A stretch of 60,038 bases of DNA, filler included, from Stramenopiles sp. TOSAG23-3 (Eukaryota): NCBI GenBank assembly GCA_900128585.1. It is 13 parts of 13 records of this genome, joined end to end, with 100 filler letters (N's around TTAATTAATTAA, not from the genome) between each part and the next. Parts side by side here need not be neighbours in the genome. Positions count along the whole stretch, not along the records: positions 32,424 to 36,946 come from LT643794.1; 12 more parts are not named here. One strand, 5' to 3'. Positions 6,531 to 35,701 of the stretch are shown here, in pieces (within the stretch, counting starts at the first letter, position 1; each line of letters opens with the position of its first letter). A program made the position numbers and the translations under genes. The notes beneath the pieces are model-generated. The model worked only from the letters and a program-made list of their open reading frames with translations. It did not search any database and was not told the origin of the DNA.

Positions 6531-9179
6531 TCAATCAAAGTTTATTTTTAGCTTGCATTTTTCCTTGCATTCGTCCGCGGTTTGCCTCACTTTAGTGTTT
6601 CGCTTTAGTGTTTCGTCAAGCTTGACTGGTTTTTCATGTCGAAACGTCTTCAATGTATCTGGTTCAAAATAACCATTGCCTTCCTTTATCATATACTGAA
6701 GGATGCAGTCTAACTCTGGGTATTTTGTGGCAAGTTCCTTTCCCAAAGTCTTGCCCTGTCCTTGGAACTCCTGTAATAGATTATAGGCCTTAACGCTTAT
6801 ACCCCGATATTCCGGTTTCCAAAATACCGTTCCACAGGAATGATTTTGGATGCCTCTAGCTCGATTCAGCTCTTCGCGAACGTACTGAGAAAATTTGGTC
6901 ATGTGGTATAAGTTACAAAACGGCAGCCATGCCACCGGATTTTTCTCGAGATGATTTAGATGGTCAATCTCATTAACAACCCCCTCGCACTGAAAGAAGT
7001 CCCACCAGGCAAGGCGAGGTTTTATTGATTCAGAAAAGAGCATAGGATGCTTGTTGCAATTTGTCTTCTCCAGTTTGTCTTTGCAAACCCTTACATCTTT
7101 TCTATTTGGTTTAGTGGTATTGGGATCTATATATTCACATGGCGCCGTTGGGTGGCCTTCTAGGTCAGCGGGAACAACAATCACACCGAATACTTTGATG
7201 ATAGCATTTGCCAGATCGTTTAGCTCATTGTTTGCTTCGCCTTCTTCATACCATATTGGGACATGAAAATCATATCTTTTTTGATTCGATGGCTTAAATA
7301 ATTTCTTAAGCTGTAAACATAACTTGCTCAGCTCTGTGATATCCATTTCTAGAAGATCTGGATAGTAGCCTGGACGCCGACTGCATTCGATATAATCATG
7401 AATTGAAAACAAGCCTTTCAGGCATGAATAACCCTGTTCTAAAATATTTTCTTCTTCCAAATGTCTGTCTTTTTTGGGAAATAGTTGGAACAGTTCACTC
7501 ATTTCTTCCCATAAACCCTCTGTTTTCATCTTCCAATCCTCATAATTTTTCACTCCTTGTTCCTGCATCTTTTTAGAAATAATTTGATTGTTCTTCTTGG
7601 AGGAAGGGTTAGGGTTACCGAACCTACCGGAAAAAGTTTTCCCCGCCTTCACTTGGTTCTCTTTGAATAGTTTGAACGGTTCCCTAGGGTACTTAGGATC
7701 ACAATTTGGGCCCTTGTGCATTTCTTTGAACTTGTCATAGTCTGACTGTAAATCGTTATTTTTTTGCTTTAGTGTGTTATTTTGTTGCTTTAGTGTGTTA
7801 TTTTGTTCCGTTAGACCTTCATTTCGTCCCTTTAGATCTCCATTTTGTTGATTTAGCTTTTTATTCGTCTCATTTAATTGTAACCATTCCTTCAATTTAT
7901 AGTTGATATCTTCAATTGTCTTTTCCCAAACATCTTGGTGTTCATAAGTCATAAGCTTTTTACGAGTAGTTTCAGTGTTGCCCTTTTTGTATCCATCAAA
8001 AAAGTTTTGGACTATTTTGATCTTCTTTTTCAATGAGGTTAGCCGGCCGTCCAATCCGTTTATTCTCTTTTTCCACGAATCAGGTGTATCAGACATAGGT
8101 GACACTGCGCCACGCGATTTATCAGGGTATTTATCCAAAAACTCCTTGGCGCACTTGCACTTTTGTCTTAGGTCTCTCAATTCCTTTTCACCATTCTTTG
8201 TCCCAGTAGAACTTGGTAATGGCGACAGGTGAGTTTCATCACGCTTTTCAGTTTTGCACTTTTTGTGTTCATCTAGCAGCGTTTTCAATTTCTTTATTCT
8301 CCTTTGCCAGTCACCATTTGTATGATTAGTGTATTCATCTAGCAGATTTTCCAATTTCGTTATTTTGTTTTTCCAATCACGAAGATCCGTATCGGCAATC
8401 TCAGTTTTGCGATCTTCAAATATGTCGACTACCAGACGCGATTTATCAGCCTCAGTGTTGCCATCTTGGTATTTATCAAACAATATTTCGACTAATTTAC
8501 ACTTATCTTGCAAAGTACAATCAGCCGGAGGTGGCGCACCAGGTGGCGAATCGCCGGATCTAGCAGGCTTTGGAGTTGGATTTTCAGTTCCGAATTTACA
8601 ATTCTTGTGTTTCTCTTTAAATTTCGCTGATTCATCTAGCAGCGTTTTCAATTTCTTTATTCTCCCTTGCCAGTCACCATGATCAGTGTAATCTAGCAGA
8701 TTTTTCAATTCCTTTATTCTCTCTTCCCAATCATCAAAATCACCAAGATTATCTGCATCGACTTTTTTATAATCGTCGAAATGTTTCTGGACTAACTTAC
8801 ACCTCTTCTGCAGGTCTGCCAATTTCTTTTCACCAATCTTTGGCTCAGGTGACGGCAGGCGAGGTTCATTGATTTTGACTGGTTTGGATTCAGCCGTAGG
8901 TGATGGATGAGGGTGTTCATCATGCTCTGGAGTCGGATCTTCAGTTCCGAATTTACAATTCTCGTGTTTCTTATAAAATACCTGGTACTCCGCACGCTCT
9001 GTTTCCCATTGTTCTCGATCTTTCTCCCAAGCAGCTTCCTTTTGCTTCAGTTTCTTTATTGTCTCTTTTTGTTCTTCGTTTTCATCCTTCAGTTGTTTAA
9101 GTTCTTCTATCTTTTTTTTTAACGTTATGGCACATCTGGCGTGCTTGTCCTGTTCTGCTTTTAATTTCGTTGCACATCC
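6531..9179 (-). CDS. Large Lys/Glu-rich coiled-coil protein with internal repeats, 5'-truncated
   Basis: The frame of ORF 6531..8822 stays open to the contig end. Repeats DWQ.RIKKLKTLLDE, KH.NCKFGTE.PTP and NNTLKQ. No family recognised. Confidence 0.7.
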   Translation of the reverse strand, partial: GCATKLKAEQDKHARCAITLKKKIEELKQLKDENEEQKETIKKLKQKEAAWEKDREQWETERAEYQVFYKKHENCKFGTEDPTPEHDEHPHPSPTAESKPVKINEPRLPSPEPKIGEKKLADLQKRCKLVQKHFDDYKKVDADNLGDFDDWEERIKELKNLLDYTDHGDWQGRIKKLKTLLDESAKFKEKHKNCKFGTENPTPKPARSGDSPPGAPPPADCTLQDKCKLVEILFDKYQDGNTEADKSRLVVDIFEDRKTEIADTDLRDWKNKITKLENLLDEYTNHTNGDWQRRIKKLKTLLDEHKKCKTEKRDETHLSPLPSSTGTKNGEKELRDLRQKCKCAKEFLDKYPDKSRGAVSPMSDTPDSWKKRINGLDGRLTSLKKKIKIVQNFFDGYKKGNTETTRKKLMTYEHQDVWEKTIEDINYKLKEWLQLNETNKKLNQQNGDLKGRNEGLTEQNNTLKQQNNTLKQKNNDLQSDYDKFKEMHKGPNCDPKYPREPFKLFKENQVKAGKTFSGRFGNPNPSSKKNNQIISKKMQEQGVKNYEDWKMKTEGLWEEMSELFQLFPKKDRHLEEENILEQGYSCLKGLFSIHDYIECSRRPGYYPDLLEMDITELSKLCLQLKKLFKPSNQKRYDFHVPIWYEEGEANNELNDLANAIIKVFGVIVVPADLEGHPTAPCEYIDPNTTKPNRKDVRVCKDKLEKTNCNKHPMLFSESIKPRLAWWDFFQCEGVVNEIDHLNHLEKNPVAWLPFCNLYHMTKFSQYVREELNRARGIQNHSCGTVFWKPEYRGISVKAYNLLQEFQGQGKTLGKELATKYPELDCILQYMIKEGNGYFEPDTLKTFRHEKPVKLDETLKRNTKVRQTADECKEKCKLKINFD

Positions 9180-9280
9180 GNNNNNNNNNNNNNNNNNNNN
9201 NNNNNNNNNNNNNNNNNNNNNNNNTTAATTAATTAANNNNNNNNNNNNNNNNNNNNNNNNNNNNNNNNNNNNNNNNNNNN

Positions 9281-9350
9281 TTATATAAAACAGACGATTA
9301 TTACAGCTAGTACAGCAGTAAGTAAATATTATTATTTATTATTATTTTTT
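9281..9350. repeat. 70-bp perfect inverted repeat, left arm (right arm 13740..13809)
   Basis: 9281..9350 is the exact reverse complement of 13740..13809. Confidence 0.95.
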
Positions 9351-13930: not shown

Positions 13931-14453
13931 AATTTAATTACTTAAATAACAGCCAATTTTCTTGTTTAAAAAATAACAGCCAATTTTCTTGTTTTTATTT
14001 ACAATATGTGTATAAAAAGAAAAAAGAAGGTGTCAGTTCAATAACAATATCTCCTCCTATTGAAGATCCTCCCCAAGTTCTGGTCAAGATTTCAATTGAT
14101 TGGTCTTAAAAGTACACGGCGGCATAAATGTTTAAAGGGGGCTCGTTGTCTGTGGTACTGCTCAATGAAACAATGATCGGTATTGAGTTTGATCGTTTCC
14201 TGTTCGTATACACATACAGATGTAAGTGTACCTTCTGGGAATCCTCAACGGCAATGTTATTGAGGTATTTAAAACATTACTTCCTTCTTGTACTGTGATT
14301 TGTTTCTGCTCAAAAAAATAATCAATTTCCTCTTATCCTGTAGTCTTCACTATCCTCATCGTGTGAAGTCCATTCGTGATCAGAATCGATATTTAGATTT
14401 TCGACGATTTCAAATGACCCAAAGTCGACTTCTTATCCCTGTGTCTCGCTCAT
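13931..14453. mobile_element. Cluster of the AAATAACAGCC inverted-repeat family: two motif copies, module E (+), modules C/B (-)
   Basis: 13931..14117 closely matches 59885..60038. 14270..14453 is a reverse copy of the peptide module. Confidence 0.7.
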
Positions 14454-14624
14454 AACATATTATATCTTCTTCATATATCACGAAAGTGAATCTGCTCCTT
14501 TTGTCCATATCAATAAAAATCTAAATTCGCAAATTAGTTAAAGTAATTTATCGGCCTTTCAAAAGCAATTAGTTCGTTTGTTGTTTTACCAATTAGCACG
14601 ATCAACTGACCAACTATACAAAAC

Positions 14625-17664: not shown

Positions 17665-18551
17665 AGTTTGTTGTTTCAAAGTTTCAGTTTTCAAAAAACA
17701 GTCAATGCAATGGAGTGACAAGAGCAAATTATTAGGTAGATTCTTAGGTGAACCTGTTTTAATATTTCTCGACGAATGAAGAAAACAGGGGTAGTAGCAA
17801 TATTAAAACAGAGTGGTCCAACGTTCCTCGAAAAAGGTTGAAAAGGTCAGGTGTAGTAGTATGAGAAGAAATGTTTTTTTTCTTATTCTTCTTCTTATTA
17901 TTTATACGACGACACAAACGTCGTTGTTGTATAATACATATATTAGACACTATAATATATTATTTATTCGGAATTAACTAGAACGACTAATAGCCTAAAT
18001 AGTGGCTCGGAAGCTTCGCTTCAGCTCCAAGGCGAAAGCCTACTGCATACCCTACTCTCAACACTAAACAATCACCTCTTCCTACAAAAAAAAAATTGAA
18101 GGTTAGGGTTAGGTGAATGTTTATTGAAATGTTGTAAACGTTTCAAATTAGAGATTAACTCTGGGTCAACTTTCAAAATACGCAACGTATTCGAAACCCT
18201 GAAACAATTTAACAACCCATTCGAGTGTATGCATCGTGTTGATCTAATTGATCAACTTATACTTGTGGTACACGTCGTCCAACTAGCACGCCCTGCTAGT
18301 CTTTACCTGTGTCGATAATATTATCGGATAATAAAATTCGTCGTCTTAGAGATGCGTTACCGGAGCCTCTAGCTGCTGGCAACGCTCTGATTCTCTGTGT
18401 CTTCATCCGAGGATATCACTACTAGGGTCGGGGCGATGCTGAGTTGCTGACNNNNNNNNNNNNNNNNNNNNNNNNNNNNNNNNNNNNNNNNNNNNTTAAT
18501 TAATTAANNNNNNNNNNNNNNNNNNNNNNNNNNNNNNNNNNNNNNNNNNNN

Positions 18552-25378: not shown

Positions 25379-26294
25379 AAATAACAGCCATCTGTTATTT
25401 TTTTTAATCATATGACATCGACGCAAATCCAAATACCGATTCGGATCATACATGGAGTACACTTGAGAATGATAGTTCCACGTATATTATTGATTATATA
25501 GTAAAATAACAGGATCAGAGATAAGTTCGCAGTAAGTTTACATGAAGGAATGTTTAATGGACAAAAGGAGCATATTCATTTGCGCAGTAAATGTGGAAGA
25601 TAAATTTGAATTTACTTAAATACCAGTGCCACTATTTTGTTTTTAATTACAAACTGCACTGTTTTTTTTTTAATTCTTAGATTAAAGGGTATATTTTTGA
25701 TTTTACTAAAATCACTAATTCTAAAAGTAAAAAGAGATCAGTTCGCAGTAGATTAATTTTAAGTACTTAACGACGGGAACAGCATTCACACACGCCGATT
25801 ATGAACACCGACCCAAACGACACCCCGTCGACACCCCAACCCACAATTGACAATTGGTTGGTCCAAAAGACAGACAACGAGCATCGTTAAAACAATTACG
25901 CCGATTCTTCGACACCAACACAAGGAATGATCCATCTATGAGCGAGACACTGGATGAGACAGTTGATTATGGGTCTCCCGTCATCGACACATTTCCATAC
26001 ACCGATTGGGATCATGCATGGAGTACATCTGAGAATGATAGTCAACACTAGTGACAAGGGTATACTGATTAGTAAAACCACAAGAGCAGAGATAAGTTCG
26101 CAGCACAGGAAGGAATGTAAACCTTGAATGTCTAAATTTAGAGTTCAGTTCGCAGTACATTAATTTTAATTATTCTATATAATTTGTTCTTAAATAACAG
26201 CCAATTTTCTTGTTTTTAATTATGTTACTGAACTAACAGCCAGTTTTTCGTTTTTAATTCTTAAAACTGTATAACCGCCAGTATTTTGTTTTTA
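25379..26294 (+). mobile_element. Cluster of the same repeat family with two peptide-module copies, between convergent genes
   Basis: Motifs at 25379, 25613, 26190, 26234 and 26270. Peptide modules at 25414..25479 and 25938..26051. Confidence 0.7.
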
Positions 26295-32423: not shown

Positions 32424-34729
32424 GGTATATCGATTAGTAAAACCAAAAGAGCAAAGATAAGTTCGCAGTTCATGAAGGAATGTAAACCTAGAATGTCTAA
32501 ATTTAGATTTCAGTTCGCAGTACATTAATTTTAATTACTTAAATAACAGATAATTTTCTTTGTTTTATAAAAGTTAGTGTCCTAGGTAAGTATTATTTTA
32601 TTTTTAGAGTGAGAGAAATTGTGAACCTGAGGGACGGGTACCGGTACTATCTCCATGACAAAAATTCCTATATAAAGTATATGAACAAATAATGGCTGTT
32701 ATTTCGGTATTTAAAATTTATTTTCTTCGTGTACACCGCGAATGTATTTCTGCTCCTAATGTCCAGTAAAATTTTACTTCCTTCATGTGCTGCGAACTCA
32801 TCTCTGCTTCGGCGATTTTCTTAATCAATGTACTCCTGTTCTTTAGTTACCCTCTTGTGTACTCCATGAATGATCAGAACTGATATTTGGATTTTCGATG
32901 ATACCAAATGACCCGTAGTCAACTTCTTCATCAGGTATCCCGCTCATAAATGAGTCAGAACTTGTGTGATTTTTCAAGCAACGGCGTAAATATTTTCAAG
33001 GTGCTCGTTGTTTGACTTGTAAATTGGCCAAGGGGAATGGTCATTGATGGGTTGATATGGCTATATCATGACTCATGAAATTTTCAATTCATCCTTCCTT
33101 GCAATGTAACTTATTCTTGTCCACTAAAAAACCCTCCATAATGCGAATAATACTGATGATGATTGAACTGATACCTTCTTTTTTCTTTAATTTTAATTAC
33201 TATAAAATAACAGCCAATTTTCTTGTTTTTAATTTGCACTGATTTAGATCTTCGTGTACATGTATACGAGCAAGAGAAGATTGAACACATTAAAGATCAT
33301 TCTTTCATAGAGCAGTACAACAGAAACCGAGCACAAAGCCGTTGTTTATCAGCCAATTGGAATCTTGCCCAGAACATCTGGTAGTGTGTACGAAGGGGAT
33401 AATATCAAACTCGGTGACGATCATTCTTTCATAGAGCAATACAACCGAAAACGAGCACCTTAAAATATTATAGCCGCTGTCTATTCGCAAATTGGAATCA
33501 AATTGGAATCTTGACCAAAATTAGGAAGGATCTGCAACAGGAGGAGACATTGTTCTTGAACTGACACCCCCTTTTCTTAAATAAATAACAGCCATTATTT
33601 TGTTTTTAATTTGTTTTTAAAGTTTTAATTTCTTCTTGTACTGCGACTTGTTTCTACTCCAGAAGCCTGTCTCAAGTATTCAATTTACTTATACCCTTTA
33701 GTCTTCACTGTCATCCTCGTGTGAACTCCACACATTATCAGAATTGGTATTTGGAATATAGTCATATAAATTTAGATATCTAAATAATAGCCTATATTTG
33801 TTTTTTAGTTAAAAGTAAAAAATATAATTAGTTTTTTTTAAATACTCAATGGCTCCAACCTCATGAAAAGAAAGTTTCATATTTTATTTCCTTTCAGTAA
33901 AAAATATCCTTGGTTTAAATTAAAAACAAAATTTATACTGCTATTTAGATTATTGTCCAAGTTATAAATTATAAATCACCAGCGGCAGCCTAGGCTAATT
34001 GGCAGTACACAAAAGATGGGCGGATTGGTGGATGCGAATCTTCCAACGCAACGTACTCAATGTGGTCGCTAAGTTCATAGCATCAAGGGTCCGAATTTTA
34101 AAGGCCCTAGCCCCAACATCCCTGCCAATGGACTACCCCGCGGAAGCAGTAGACACTGCGCCAGGACAAGACACGGACGCTCGCGGCGCCGCCTTGCCCA
34201 TTTCCGAACTGCGATAGCACAATATCCACAGACATTCGACACAAAAAACAGCATCGCACATCGCACCAAAACCCTCAAGGACGGGTTCCGACTACCGACC
34301 CGGACGACACTTCCCTGCAATCACAACCCATTACTGATAATCCCTTGAACGATTTACAAAACAGAAAATGAGCACCCTCAAAACAATTAAGCCACTGTTT
34401 AACAAATCAAACAAGACCTGAATCAGCCATGAGTGGGACACCGGATGAAGAAGTCGATTATGGAGTAGCCGATACCGTTGAAAATCCACACGTCGTTAGC
34501 GATTATGAATGGAGTACACAAGATGATGGTAGTGTACACTAGATGATAGAGAGTGAACCGATTAAAGAAAAGCACAGGAGCAGAAACAAATCGCAGTACA
34601 AGAAGGAAATAACACTTCAGTGGGCAAAAACAAGTTACATTGCCAGGAAGGATGAATTGGAGATTTCAGAGTTAGCCATGTAACACTTTAGATTAATATT
34701 TAAGTAGCAGCCTATATTTTGGTTTTTAA
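32424..34729. mobile_element. Largest cluster of the repeat family (modules in both orientations)
   Basis: 32424..32556 matches 26059..26217. Peptide modules at 32843..32947(-), 33698..33757(-) and 34429..34542(+). Module E reversed at ~33250..33578. Confidence 0.72.
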
Positions 34730-34857
34730 ATTATAAATAAATGTTTCTAATTTGCAACTTCTTTTGCTTATAGACCACTGCTTCAGCCATTAAATGAAAA
34801 CCCGTTTTTCCGAAGCTAAATAATTGTAATGATTGATTTTTATGCTATGAATAAGCT

Positions 34858-35701
34858 TCAATATTTTCTGCTATTTTTCCCCCAACCTCCTAGAATTTTT
34901 TGTCGCAAATTATTTGAAAAGTAAAATGTATAAGAATCCATGATGGAAATTACAGTATCGTTCCTTATCGGTGGTATTAAATACCCTGAAAAGGTGTGTG
35001 AAACTGCACCCCGAAGGTCTTTGCATTTCGCCCCATTTTTTCGCAAAGGGTTCTCAATAAACGCGCAACTGGCAGTCAGTTTAACAAGAGAGTGATAGGG
35101 TGTAATAGAATTGTTTCTTCGCCGTTTAGTTCTTCTCGTAACTTTATTTGCACAGTCAAGGTAGATTAAAAATAACAGAAGTGCGAAGACTATCCCCGCT
35201 GCAACCGCTGCCCCGAAATAGTTTGCTTCCATACTGTTATATTTTGTTGCGTTCCTAAATGAAAACCCTTTCTTTTTTAACGAGTTCGGGCTTATAGATA
35301 TATTGATAAATGTGTGGTTGAGTACCGGAGCCGTTGGTTAACGTTTGCCCATTTTTTCCATGCATTTCGGAAGGTGACGGTGCAGACGCATGCAAATAGT
35401 TACTCTTATTAACTGCTTCTTTTAGCGAGGAATTTTGAACTATTTTAGTAGAATTAGACAGAGTCAACGTTGACGTGGCTGAAAGTGGTGATTTTTTCCC
35501 CAAATCTTGACGAACAGTTTCCGAAGAGTTAGCACTGTTGCGTTGTAGTTCTCCAGCTAGCCTCTGCTTGATTTCCTTCAAAGTAAGATTGTCAAATAAG
35601 TCCTCGCTCCATTTGATACAAAACTCCATAACGTTACTGTTTGTTGATTCGCTTTTATCAGGTGTTTCTTTGTGAAGTGTTAGAATTGTACAGATAGCCA
35701 C
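34858..35701 (-). pseudogene. Fragmented putative single-pass membrane protein
   Basis: Two consecutive out-of-frame ORFs: a Ser/Thr-rich stalk, then TM helix FGAAVAAGIVFALLLFLIYL plus a basic stretch. Confidence 0.35.

Follow-up and report, generated by a model that had tools for sequence, protein, structure and literature searches.

The R2 protein carries a CCHC motif and then a PD-(D/E)XK nuclease after its reverse transcriptase (RT), as set out in an excerpt of one account (PMC4838377), and most elements of the R2 type insert in a target-specific manner, according to an excerpt of a second (PMC4640811). A family of repeats in Stramenopiles sp. TOSAG23-3 appears to share the plan of R2, R4, NeSL, CRE, Hero and Utopia elements, in that a putative RT, a Cys/His knuckle and a C-terminal PD-(D/E)XK nuclease would follow one another in a single long open reading frame (ORF), and R2 is its best structural match. 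Like R2-type elements, the family has no poly(A) or simple-repeat tail to be seen at its 3' end and is represented by many 5'-truncated copies, and its 3' ends adjoin one short sequence, which recalls the target-specific insertion described in that second excerpt (PMC4640811). It differs from R2-type elements in an RT too divergent for Pfam RVT_1, in an ORF in which family searches detected no N-terminal zinc-finger or Myb domain, and in a putative target that is a scattered motif at gene 3' ends rather than rDNA, snRNA or spliced-leader genes. A further difference may be the presence of ~250 residues beyond the nuclease, made up of a helix, a disordered acidic stretch and a conserved tail.

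Two other kinds of system also bear comparison. As in LINE/SINE pairs, there is a common 3' tail of ~45 nt together with numerous very short units that carry that end alone; unlike in such pairs, no tRNA-, 5S- or 7SL-derived head is seen, and the 5' limit of the shortest units is sharp and not a continuum. As with small ORFs on short contigs, public catalogues include a 37-aa ORF of the family among their proteins (P0194-P0196), but this ORF is a remnant of a longer frame and shows no sign of its own translation. The 114-nt ORF at 34429-34542 (+), which is the subject of this work, is not a micropeptide gene; it is the last piece of a ~1,650-residue jumping-gene protein of an uncultured marine protist. 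We put at about 0.8 the probability that it represents the last 37 codons of a single ORF of ~1650-1690 aa in an R2-like non-LTR retrotransposon, where R2-like refers to layout, fold and truncation pattern.

The Peptide as the End of a Long ORF

At locus L023, in related metagenome DNA, the tail peptide closes a 280-codon stop-to-stop frame (1092-1934). When this frame was used as a query against longer proteins, it led to P0002 (744 aa, E 2e-73, 99% query cover) and P0003 (776 aa), both of which terminate in the peptide. The 90% clusters of these two proteins contain P0189 (1655 aa), P0175 (1689 aa) and P0159 (1422 aa), and full-length ORFs in the public protein catalogues measure 1655-1689 aa. 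The tail corresponds to residues 708-744 of P0002 and 1619-1655 of P0189. It is fused to upstream sequence in all 29 library matches that reach residue 715 or beyond of P0002, and in most of these the upstream sequence includes a conserved ...LTDLQDRQRAPLKQLSRCLENRTR... stretch or a close variant. The Met that opens the 37-codon ORF is an internal residue in all of the long ORFs, and the otherwise intact P0178, P0184 and P0185 have Leu at this position. A word search for longer relatives of P0154 (1491-4255 aa) returned none.

An earlier note on this DNA had offered two alternatives, namely a stand-alone multicopy micropeptide, to be given up if the peptide proved to be the tail of a mobile-element ORF, or the C-terminus of a decayed mobile-element or viral protein. 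The full-length parent that it suggested looking for has been found, with the peptide as the tail of P0002 and P0189, and the micropeptide alternative is thus refuted on the note's own terms. The mobile-element alternative is upheld, as the tail is continuous with the long ORF and the window copies are broken.

Predicted Reverse Transcriptase and Nuclease

Four motifs occur in order in P0189, KKPSGIRPIAIGE (309), DAKNAFN (378), QQGDP (449) and FADD (504), and all four are conserved, or almost so, in P0159, a protein with 56% overall identity to P0189. We take these to be reverse-transcriptase motifs in their canonical order. Among the 30 named ESM-Atlas clusters closest to residues 230-640 of P0189, 25 are from the RVT_1 set (top score 0.95, 175 shared features). 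The long ORF has no match in Pfam up to E 10, none to an RT family in NCBIfam, where the sole match is unrelated and weak (fucI, E 0.17), and none of any kind in PADLOC; PDB sequences, queried with a single protein or a five-sequence profile, and a plasmid tblastn likewise gave no match. Since no profile library recognises the RT, the domain is a putative one, called from motifs identified by eye together with a single neighbour search by language model.

The Cys/His knuckle, CPCLKKNGEPC...HFIGCKSHG, lies at residues 1153-1180 of P0189 and is followed by a predicted PD-(D/E)XK nuclease, both being C-terminal to the putative RT. An AlphaFold2 model of P0002, built from an 83-sequence alignment, has blocks averaging pLDDT >85 over most of residues 370-470, with an average of 55 for the whole model. 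Folded from its single sequence, P0002 gave a pLDDT of 34.5. A structure search over 48,161 chains ranked R2 first (9dou_A, model residues 192-530 against chain residues 1179-1390, rmsd 4.0 over 175 residues), with a Z of 8.6, which barely exceeds the best Z that this tool typically gives to models lacking a clear match (7-8). The second match was 8ibw_C (Z 8.1), and below it came the endonuclease-like domain of Prp8, influenza PA-N, restriction enzymes and Hjc. Foldseek gave no match at E <= 0.001, its top row being R2 8ibz_C at E 0.15. The predicted nuclease fold thus resembles the R2 endonuclease region, as these tool results show for the model, and the acidic positions conserved in the 83-sequence alignment (E..D and E.WDVHF) are candidate catalytic residues. 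For the nuclease part, the ESM Atlas returned unnamed clusters only, and family searches with the 744-851 aa forms returned zf-primase alone, below threshold (E 0.007, 16.5 bits against a cut-off of 28.8).

The ORF would be laid out, in the model proposed here, as an RT, a long linker, the Cys/His knuckle and the PD-(D/E)XK restriction-like endonuclease, then a helical stretch, a disordered Ser/Asp/Glu-rich stretch and the conserved acidic C-terminus, with a 3'UTR of ~150-250 nt beyond it.

Truncated Copies in the Window

The window, by which we mean the whole 60,038-nt stretch analyzed, is made up of 13 contigs of ~4.5 kb each with N spacers between them. An nhmmer profile made from copies A, B and C below and run on the whole window found nine places (E 4e-83 to 4e-4) on contigs 4, 6, 8 and 13. 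The window copies comprise seven with the ORF and one with the 3'UTR alone, on 4 of the 13 contigs, and are 68-82% identical to one another. Rfam at gathering scores had no match anywhere in the window. The copies and associated features are as follows.

Copy D, 14268-14455 (-): truncated at the ATG; in-frame TAA at codon 7; stop lost (TAC)
Internal ORF fragment, 18348-18449 (-): at the end of contig 4; 82% identical to P0175 aa 1574-1607 (tblastn, E 2e-8)
Copy F, 25408-25650 (+): truncated within the tail (from ~codon 13); 3'UTR and degenerate 25-nt motif
Copy A, 25775-26192 (+): 5'-truncated; coding remnant of about the last 90 codons, frameshift upstream of the ATG
Tail of copy A, 25938-26051 (+): 37 codons, then 3'UTR up to the 25-nt motif
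25-nt motif AATAACAGCCAATTTTCTTGTTTTT, 26193-26217 (+): exact
Copy H, 32424-32561 (+): 3'UTR and motif-like end only; cut by the start of contig 8
Copy C, 32676-33054 (-): last ~65 codons, two in-frame stops upstream of the ATG, 3'UTR
Copy G, 33613-33757 (-): truncated within the tail (from ~codon 19); part of the 3'UTR
Copy B, 33975-34730 (+): two segments matching P0189, the tail ORF of the present study, 3'UTR
Copy E, 56871-56991 (+): CTG in place of ATG, +1 frameshift, 3'UTR deleted

The longest coding remnants could be aligned to P0189 by tblastn. Copy A matches aa 1597-1655 (63% identity, E 1.7e-13; nhmmer 25860-26135(+), E 4e-83) and copy C matches aa 1590-1652 (59%, E 5e-16; nhmmer 33025-32757(-)); the tail ORF of copy C, at 32947-32843, has 34 codons owing to a 9-nt deletion, and its motif-like end is at 32697-32676. 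In copy B, 33975-34163 matches aa 1394-1456 (63%, E 3e-18) and 34321-34542 matches aa 1583-1655 (59%, E 6e-18), with a shortened, out-of-frame middle between them. A TGA stands 25 codons before its ATG, and the tail ORF (34429-34542) is followed by the 3'UTR and a degenerate motif at ~34704-34727 (nhmmer 34350-34628(+)). Copy H is 82% identical to 26059-26218 (nhmmer 32424-32500(+), model positions 202-278), copy E was placed by nhmmer at 56870-56991, and copy D lies immediately after the 3'UTR remnant of a different copy; a weak 40-nt nhmmer match was also obtained at 14153-14114. At least the first 1390 codons are missing from each of the eight window copies that have a 3' end, and most of these copies contain stops or frameshifts.

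These results agree with much of what had been described from the sequence by eye. The earlier note reported a dispersed repeat with at least seven copies on four contigs, as nhmmer also finds for the ORF-bearing copies, and its partial copies at 25414 and 33698 are confirmed as copies F (nhmmer 25409-25564(+), model positions 117-277, E 3e-22) and G (33757-33618(-), model positions 134-269, E 1.7e-18). The peptide translations it quoted are correct on re-translation, the TGG is invariant in all seven copies, the equivalent stop it saw in five copies is present in A, B, C, E and G, and the homologous frame 5' of the ATG is broken by stops in B and C, two copies as reported.

A wider view was obtained from 132 related loci, picked by the 25-nt motif in a way that favours 3' ends, so that the window copies alone are unbiased. 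Over the window together with these motif-chosen loci, tblastn depth on P0189 stays at 0 throughout aa 1-600 and never exceeds 1.4 between aa 601 and 1400; it then rises to 3.9 and to 5.9 in the two following hundreds and reaches 16.8 in aa 1601-1655. Of 70 nhmmer matches, 49 end in the last 40 model positions, with starts spread over all bins, and 5' ends fall at P0002 residues ~72, 330, 473-483, 500, 566, 608 and 655-708. The copies, those of the loci having been chosen by a 3' motif, have a common 3' end and are truncated at their 5' ends at many points, and the window copies are broken. Neither the DNA of a full-length copy nor a target-site duplication nor an empty site was seen, and no orthologous pairs of filled and empty sites were found among the loci or between the window and the loci. 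In the scenario favoured here, the element would have left many stumps consisting of the ORF end and 3'UTR only, which would then decay neutrally. Some stumps would happen to begin at an internal Met codon with the frame open by descent, and for this reason would resemble a small gene.

The 25-nt Motif and the 3' Ends

Every element 3' end adjoins the 25-nt motif, which is degenerate or motif-like in some copies; the motif also occurs alone and is present at many gene 3' ends. Further exact matches to AATAACAGCCAATTTTCTTGTTTTT are at 13972-13996, 33206-33230, 44467-44491 and 57028-57052, and sites with at most three mismatches number eight in the window, where 100 shuffles predict 0.00. A and D are cases of a new copy lodged between an older 3'UTR remnant and the motif. 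Copy F and the plus-strand L023 copy each lie between two directly oriented motif sites, the upstream site of copy F being motif-like and just upstream at ~25379-25405, and around copy E there are motif copies at 56824-56840(-), 56995-57011(+) and 57031-57047(+). Three 3'UTR variants belonging to different ORF subfamilies have the ~45-nt end in common, and the shortest units, which bear that end only, are numerous (94 of 159 reach at most 6 nt beyond the core). The motif may be either the conserved terminus of the element or its insertion target.

A role for the motif as a spliced leader was considered because RNA contigs show a word depth of 150-900 at motif sites with many different continuations. 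It was rejected since motif sites are rare before ORF starts (7 and 8 of 179 sites lie at most 250 nt upstream of the start of ORFs of at least 100 aa) compared with ORF ends, which 40 and 64 of the 179 adjoin. One mapped poly(A) site falls inside a degenerate copy of the motif.

Constraint on the Terminal Codons and Rival Explanations

It is very improbable that some truncated copies have been taken over as an independently translated acidic micropeptide gene. An ATG with an open tail of 31-37 codons is kept in 9 of 22 copies (and not in the other 13), copy C and sequence upstream of B are represented in RNA-library contigs at 0-1 mismatches and a depth of 2-6, and three contigs of 610-683 nt have the 37-aa protein among their called genes; against this, the RNA libraries may contain DNA and their contigs carry no strand, the Met is the internal one of the long ORFs discussed above, and there is no conserved promoter or start context beyond the parent sequence. 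The codon-biased divergence described in the earlier note is not borne out over the 37 codons, where mean pairwise divergence at positions 1, 2 and 3 is 0.273, 0.307 and 0.283 in 19 of the 22 aligned copies (window and related loci, three poorly aligned rows dropped). A third-position excess, which would favour a micropeptide, is limited to codons 1-13 (0.14, 0.18 and 0.30). The dN/dS check that the note had advised likewise gives no sign of constraint specific to this frame: the Nei-Gojobori value of 0.54 for the ORF frame is matched by 0.56 for frame +2 and by 0.51 for one of the frames in the 78 untranslated nt past the stop. Conservation 5' of the ATG and past the stop is as high as within the ORF, and homology extends ~80 nt or more upstream, where open frames also continue, and 80-250 nt downstream. 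As homology continues on both sides, the ORF is not the unit of conservation.

A cut-and-paste DNA transposon was also weighed, in which the ~45-nt end (AATTTTAATTACTTAAAT plus the 25-nt motif) would form terminal inverted repeats, the short copies would be MITE-like deletion derivatives and the nuclease would be a transposase. This is improbable, even though the motif abounds near genes as MITEs typically do, and a short unrelated repeat on contig 13 (59773-59930) also lies between inverted ends. The end is inverted at the 5' edge and direct at the 3' edge in just three inspected copies (E, the minus-strand L023 copy and L093); most 5' edges adjoin a direct motif or a 3'UTR remnant instead (A, D, F, plus-strand L023, L007). 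Two motif ends would predict N-terminal pieces as often as C-terminal ones, but N-terminal fragments are nearly absent near motif sites, as the tblastn depths given above show. Nor was a target duplication found, and the ORF has the motifs read as those of an RT and RVT_1 neighbours. The idea that the ORF comes from an integrated or free protist virus, with the copies as endogenous viral fragments, has hardly any likelihood. The cap-snatching endonucleases of influenza and bunyaviruses do match the nuclease fold at Z 5-6, but R2 outscores every viral nuclease in the structure search, BFVD gave no fold match at E <= 0.001, and among 2.9 million viral contigs the motif had no match and P0154 no confirmed one. 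The copies, moreover, lie between ordinary host genes on many contigs, and the viral variant of the earlier note's second alternative is left unsupported by these searches.

Occurrence and Significance

The family is widespread in the ocean. In ocean metagenomes, 302 representative clusters match it at E <= 1e-3, one cluster member is labelled MAST-4 by EukProt, and the contig bearing copies B, C and G is present, whole or in part, in 20 of 24 listed sequencing runs (12 studies). Literature searches by motif or peptide string and by MAST-4 with retrotransposon found no description of the element. The best reading is of dead, 5'-truncated copies from an undescribed R2-like retrotransposon family of uncultured marine stramenopile-like protists.

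The locus serves as an example of a common trap, in which the stump of a 5'-truncated retrotransposon is mistaken for a conserved small gene because its frame is still open from an internal Met to a stop. Its biological interest is modest and lies in documenting a retrotransposon family that has no RT or nuclease match in the family libraries searched. The one feature that deserves further work is the link between the element's 3' end and the 25-nt motif at gene 3' ends. It is conceivable, if rather doubtful, that the element is a site-specific R2-like one whose target, rather than a multicopy RNA gene, is the 25-nt host sequence AATAACAGCCAATTTTCTTGTTTTT just downstream of many protein-coding genes, with the motif taking part in mRNA 3'-end formation. 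A weaker corollary would make the conserved acidic tail (DEEVDYG...W-S-T-x-E-N-D) a functional docking peptide of the retrotransposon protein. If the target reading is true, the element would home to gene ends and would spread or renew a host 3'-end signal.

The Dispersed Repeat and Its Surroundings

The 13 contigs of the window, each of ~4.5 kb and separated by spacers of the form N44-TTAATTAATTAA-N44, carry long, intron-poor eukaryotic ORFs, with products that include a HEAT-repeat protein, a cyclic-nucleotide-gated channel, a polycystin-like channel and an amino-acid permease family transporter. A further ORF at 6531–9180 (minus strand), of at least 880 aa, runs off its contig, contains internal repeats of 60–120 nt (7972–8813) and matches no Pfam family; it encodes a Lys/Glu-rich repeat protein. 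Contigs 1 and 3 have 70–74-nt terminal inverted repeats of 100% identity (6–79 vs. 4541–4468; 9281–9350 vs. 13809–13740), which suggest an artefact of amplification or assembly (a fold-back chimera, for instance) and not biology. Contig 1 also has a 17-N gap (2571–2587) and two 72–76-nt segments that recur at 99% identity, 506–581 at 2383–2458 and 2456–2527 at the end of contig 9 (41497–41568); assembly overlaps and recent duplications are both possible.

The earlier note had described a dispersed repeat encoding a short peptide. Self-comparison of the window confirmed the repeat, with pairwise identities of 68–82%, and the quoted peptides were correct. Nine places in the window matched an nhmmer profile made from copies A, B and C: part of the 37-codon ORF lies in seven of them, one (copy H) covers only the downstream untranslated part, and one is a weak 40-nt match.

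Copies of the repeat in the window (nhmmer)
14455–14268, minus strand, copy D
25409–25564, plus strand, copy F
25860–26135, plus strand, copy A
32424–32500, copy H, downstream untranslated part only, cut off by the contig start
33025–32757, minus strand, copy C
33757–33618, minus strand, copy G
34350–34628, plus strand, copy B
56870–56991, plus strand, copy E

Homology extends beyond the ORF, for ~80 nt or more upstream and 80–250 nt downstream, with similar or slightly lower conservation. The copies are damaged: in B the middle has collapsed and a TGA lies 25 codons ahead of the ATG, C carries two stops upstream, A and E are frameshifted, D has an in-frame stop, and F, G and H are cut within or after the tail, as the 37 codons are called here. 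In every one of the eight window copies that have a 3′ end, at least the first 1390 codons of the parent ORF described below are missing. The contig with copy B is wholly or partly present in 20 of 24 runs among those listed (12 studies); it occurs in small DNA runs from a single coded organism as well as in many marine metagenomes, so that an uncultured protist of the sea is the source.

Coding Constraint on the 37 Codons

Codon-biased divergence had also been claimed, and this part did not hold. Across 22 aligned copies from the window and related loci (three badly aligned rows left out), mean pairwise divergence at codon positions 1, 2 and 3 was 0.273, 0.307 and 0.283, with a third-position excess in codons 1–13 only (0.14/0.18/0.30). 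The Nei-Gojobori dN/dS of 0.54 in the ORF frame provides no evidence of coding constraint in these copies, because frame +2 (0.56) and one frame of the 78 nt past the stop (0.51) give like values. The ATG and open tail are kept in 9 of the 22 copies and lost in 13.

The Tail Belongs to a Long ORF

In the metagenome locus L023, the 37 codons end a 280-codon stop-to-stop frame (1092–1934), the N-terminal part of which (...RWADWHMRIFQRNILNVIAKSIASGIRIF...) recurs upstream of copy B at 33975–34163. When longer proteins were searched with this frame, the catalogue proteins P0002 (744 aa; E 2e-73, 57% identity, 99% query coverage) and P0003 (776 aa) were found, both terminated by the peptide. When 1.84 billion representatives were searched in full with HMMER, 302 matched at E ≤ 1e-3, with 164 and 49 remaining at ≤ 1e-10 and ≤ 1e-30, respectively; the best 150 of the 302 were 64 to 419 aa, each shorter than the query. 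In all 29 matches reaching P0002 residue 715 or beyond, the tail is fused to upstream sequence, in most of them the conserved ...NPLTDLQDRQRAPLKQLSRCLENRTR... stretch or a near variant. Full-length members were present in the 90%-identity clusters: P0189 (1655 aa), P0175 (1689 aa) and P0159 (1422 aa), on contigs of 5.1–5.6 kb. EukProt labels one cluster member, P0165, as a MAST-4 stramenopile. An isolated internal 34-codon fragment of this ORF lies at the end of contig 4 (18348–18449, minus strand), with no tail following and 82% identity to P0175 residues 1574–1607. In P0079 and P0158, an ordinary enzyme domain (FAE1/type III PKS-like and DUF229, respectively) is fused to a fragment of the ORF, probably because the gene reads through into a truncated copy lying at its 3′ end after insertion there.

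Two readings had been offered in the earlier note, an unannotated multicopy micropeptide and the C-terminus of a decayed mobile-element or viral protein. A stand-alone micropeptide is not supported: the peptide is residues 1619–1655 of P0189, its Met is Leu in several otherwise intact long ORFs (P0178, P0184, P0185), homology crosses the ORF bounds and dN/dS is not frame-specific. The same clusters do contain three 37-aa "proteins" (P0194–P0196), called on contigs of 610–683 nt; here gene callers took the tail for a protein, as the micropeptide reading did. Searches for support of a viral origin found nothing, including one of viral contigs with a 21-nt part of the motif described below. Of the readings offered, the correct one is the C-terminus of a decayed mobile-element protein.

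5′ Truncation of the Copies

The copies have their 3′ end in common and have lost the 5′ end at scattered points. In the window and 132 metagenome loci, the latter selected via a 3′ motif and so biased toward 3′ ends (the window copies were selected otherwise), tblastn depth along P0189 is 0 at residues 1–600, at most 1.4 up to residue 1400, and 3.9, 5.9 and 16.8 in the last three hundreds. Among the 70 nhmmer matches to the repeat in this set, 49 stop within the final 40 positions of the model; the starts are distributed over every bin. Expressed as P0002 residues, 5′ ends fall at ~72 (L068), 330 (L049), 473–483 (L023 twice and copy B), ~500, 566, 608 and 655–708. A common 3′ end with scattered 5′ loss is what target-primed reverse transcription classically leaves behind when it halts early, and judging from this footprint such halting would have produced the truncated copies.

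A 25-nt Motif Adjoining the Copies

The 25-nt motif AATAACAGCCAATTTTCTTGTTTTT lies 70–150 nt downstream of several copies, and eight window sites have at most three mismatches vs. 0.00 expected.

Motif sites in the window
13972–13996, exact
26193–26217, exact
33206–33230, exact
44467–44491, exact
57028–57052, exact
13945, variant
59781, minus strand, variant
59902, variant

The flanks of the exact sites differ. The 21-nt part matches at least 132 stretches in metagenome contigs. Three 3′UTR variants, from different ORF subfamilies, share the end ...TAAATTTAATTACTTAAAT, followed by the motif. The motif also stands alone, with 94 of 159 distinct sites reaching no more than 6 nt past the core, and in short tandem runs (e.g., 26196, 26236, 26273). 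Among the 179 motif sites of the window and loci, 40 follow a same-strand ORF (≥100 aa) at a distance of up to 250 nt, and a further 64 adjoin the end of an ORF on the opposite strand; just 7 and 8 are near ORF starts, giving 104 near ends vs. 15 near starts. Metatranscriptome contigs have a word depth of 150–900 at motif regions vs. <10 in most other contig parts, with many different continuations, which fits a sequence shared by many 3′UTRs. One RNA contig (run X17) ends in a poly(A) tail at 34693, as a T run on the plus strand; this site belongs to the minus-strand gene 34858–35337 and lies inside the degenerate motif that ends copy B. A second dispersed repeat (...GAAGGTGTCAGTTCAA.AACAATA.TATCTCCTCCTATTG.AGATCCTCCCCAAGTTCTGGTCAAGAT...) adjoins motif sites on contigs 4, 8 and 13 (14016–14252, 33374–33575, 59885–60038) and is 94–96% identical to three metagenome loci (L024, L088, L115).

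At A and D, a newer copy has an older 3′UTR remnant on one side and the motif on the other, and copy F and the plus-strand copy of L023 have the motif on each side in direct orientation. Such arrangements are in keeping with insertion at one fixed position adjoining the motif, the behaviour anticipated for restriction-like-endonuclease elements (PMC4640811). No empty site or target duplication was found in the window and loci, and three copies have an inverted motif at their 5′ edge. The motif may be a terminus of the element, its target, both, or a host 3′-end signal.

Probable Relationship to R2 Retrotransposons

Profile libraries do not name the parent ORF: Pfam, PADLOC and PDB sequences gave only a sub-threshold zinc-finger match, and NCBIfam only an unrelated weak one (fucI, E 0.17). 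P0189 contains, in order, KKPSGIRPIAIGE (309), DAKNAFN (378), QQGDP (449) and FADD (504), all of them conserved or almost so in a relative of 56% overall identity, which we take to be reverse-transcriptase motifs 1–2, 3, 4 and 5. Of the 30 named ESM-Atlas clusters closest to residues 230–640, 25 are in the RVT_1 set (top score 0.95, 175 shared features). These RT-like motifs, together with the near absence of 5′-end fragments near motif sites, contradict a DNA transposon with inverted ends.

An AlphaFold2 model of P0002 from an 83-sequence alignment has a mean pLDDT of 55, with ten-residue blocks averaging >85 across most of 370–470. Foldseek alone gave no match at E ≤ 0.001 (top row R2, E 0.15). 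Exhaustive structure search placed the R2 retrotransposon on top (9dou_A, rmsd 4.0 over 175 residues, chain 1179–1390) with a Z of 8.6, which barely exceeds the best score that the tool calls common; 8ibw_C was second (Z 8.1), and the Prp8 endonuclease-like domain, influenza PA-N, restriction enzymes and Holliday-junction resolvases ranked lower. A Cys/His cluster, CPC-x7-C-x8-H-x3-C-x2-H, directly precedes this nuclease-like domain. The order resembles that of R2, in which a CCHC motif and then a PD-(D/E)XK nuclease lie downstream of the RT (PMC4838377). No description of the element was found in the literature. Taken together, the RT-like motifs, the RVT_1 neighbours and the modelled fold point to an R2-like retrotransposon protein, and the element most probably represents a previously unnamed, highly divergent R2-like family of non-LTR retrotransposons.
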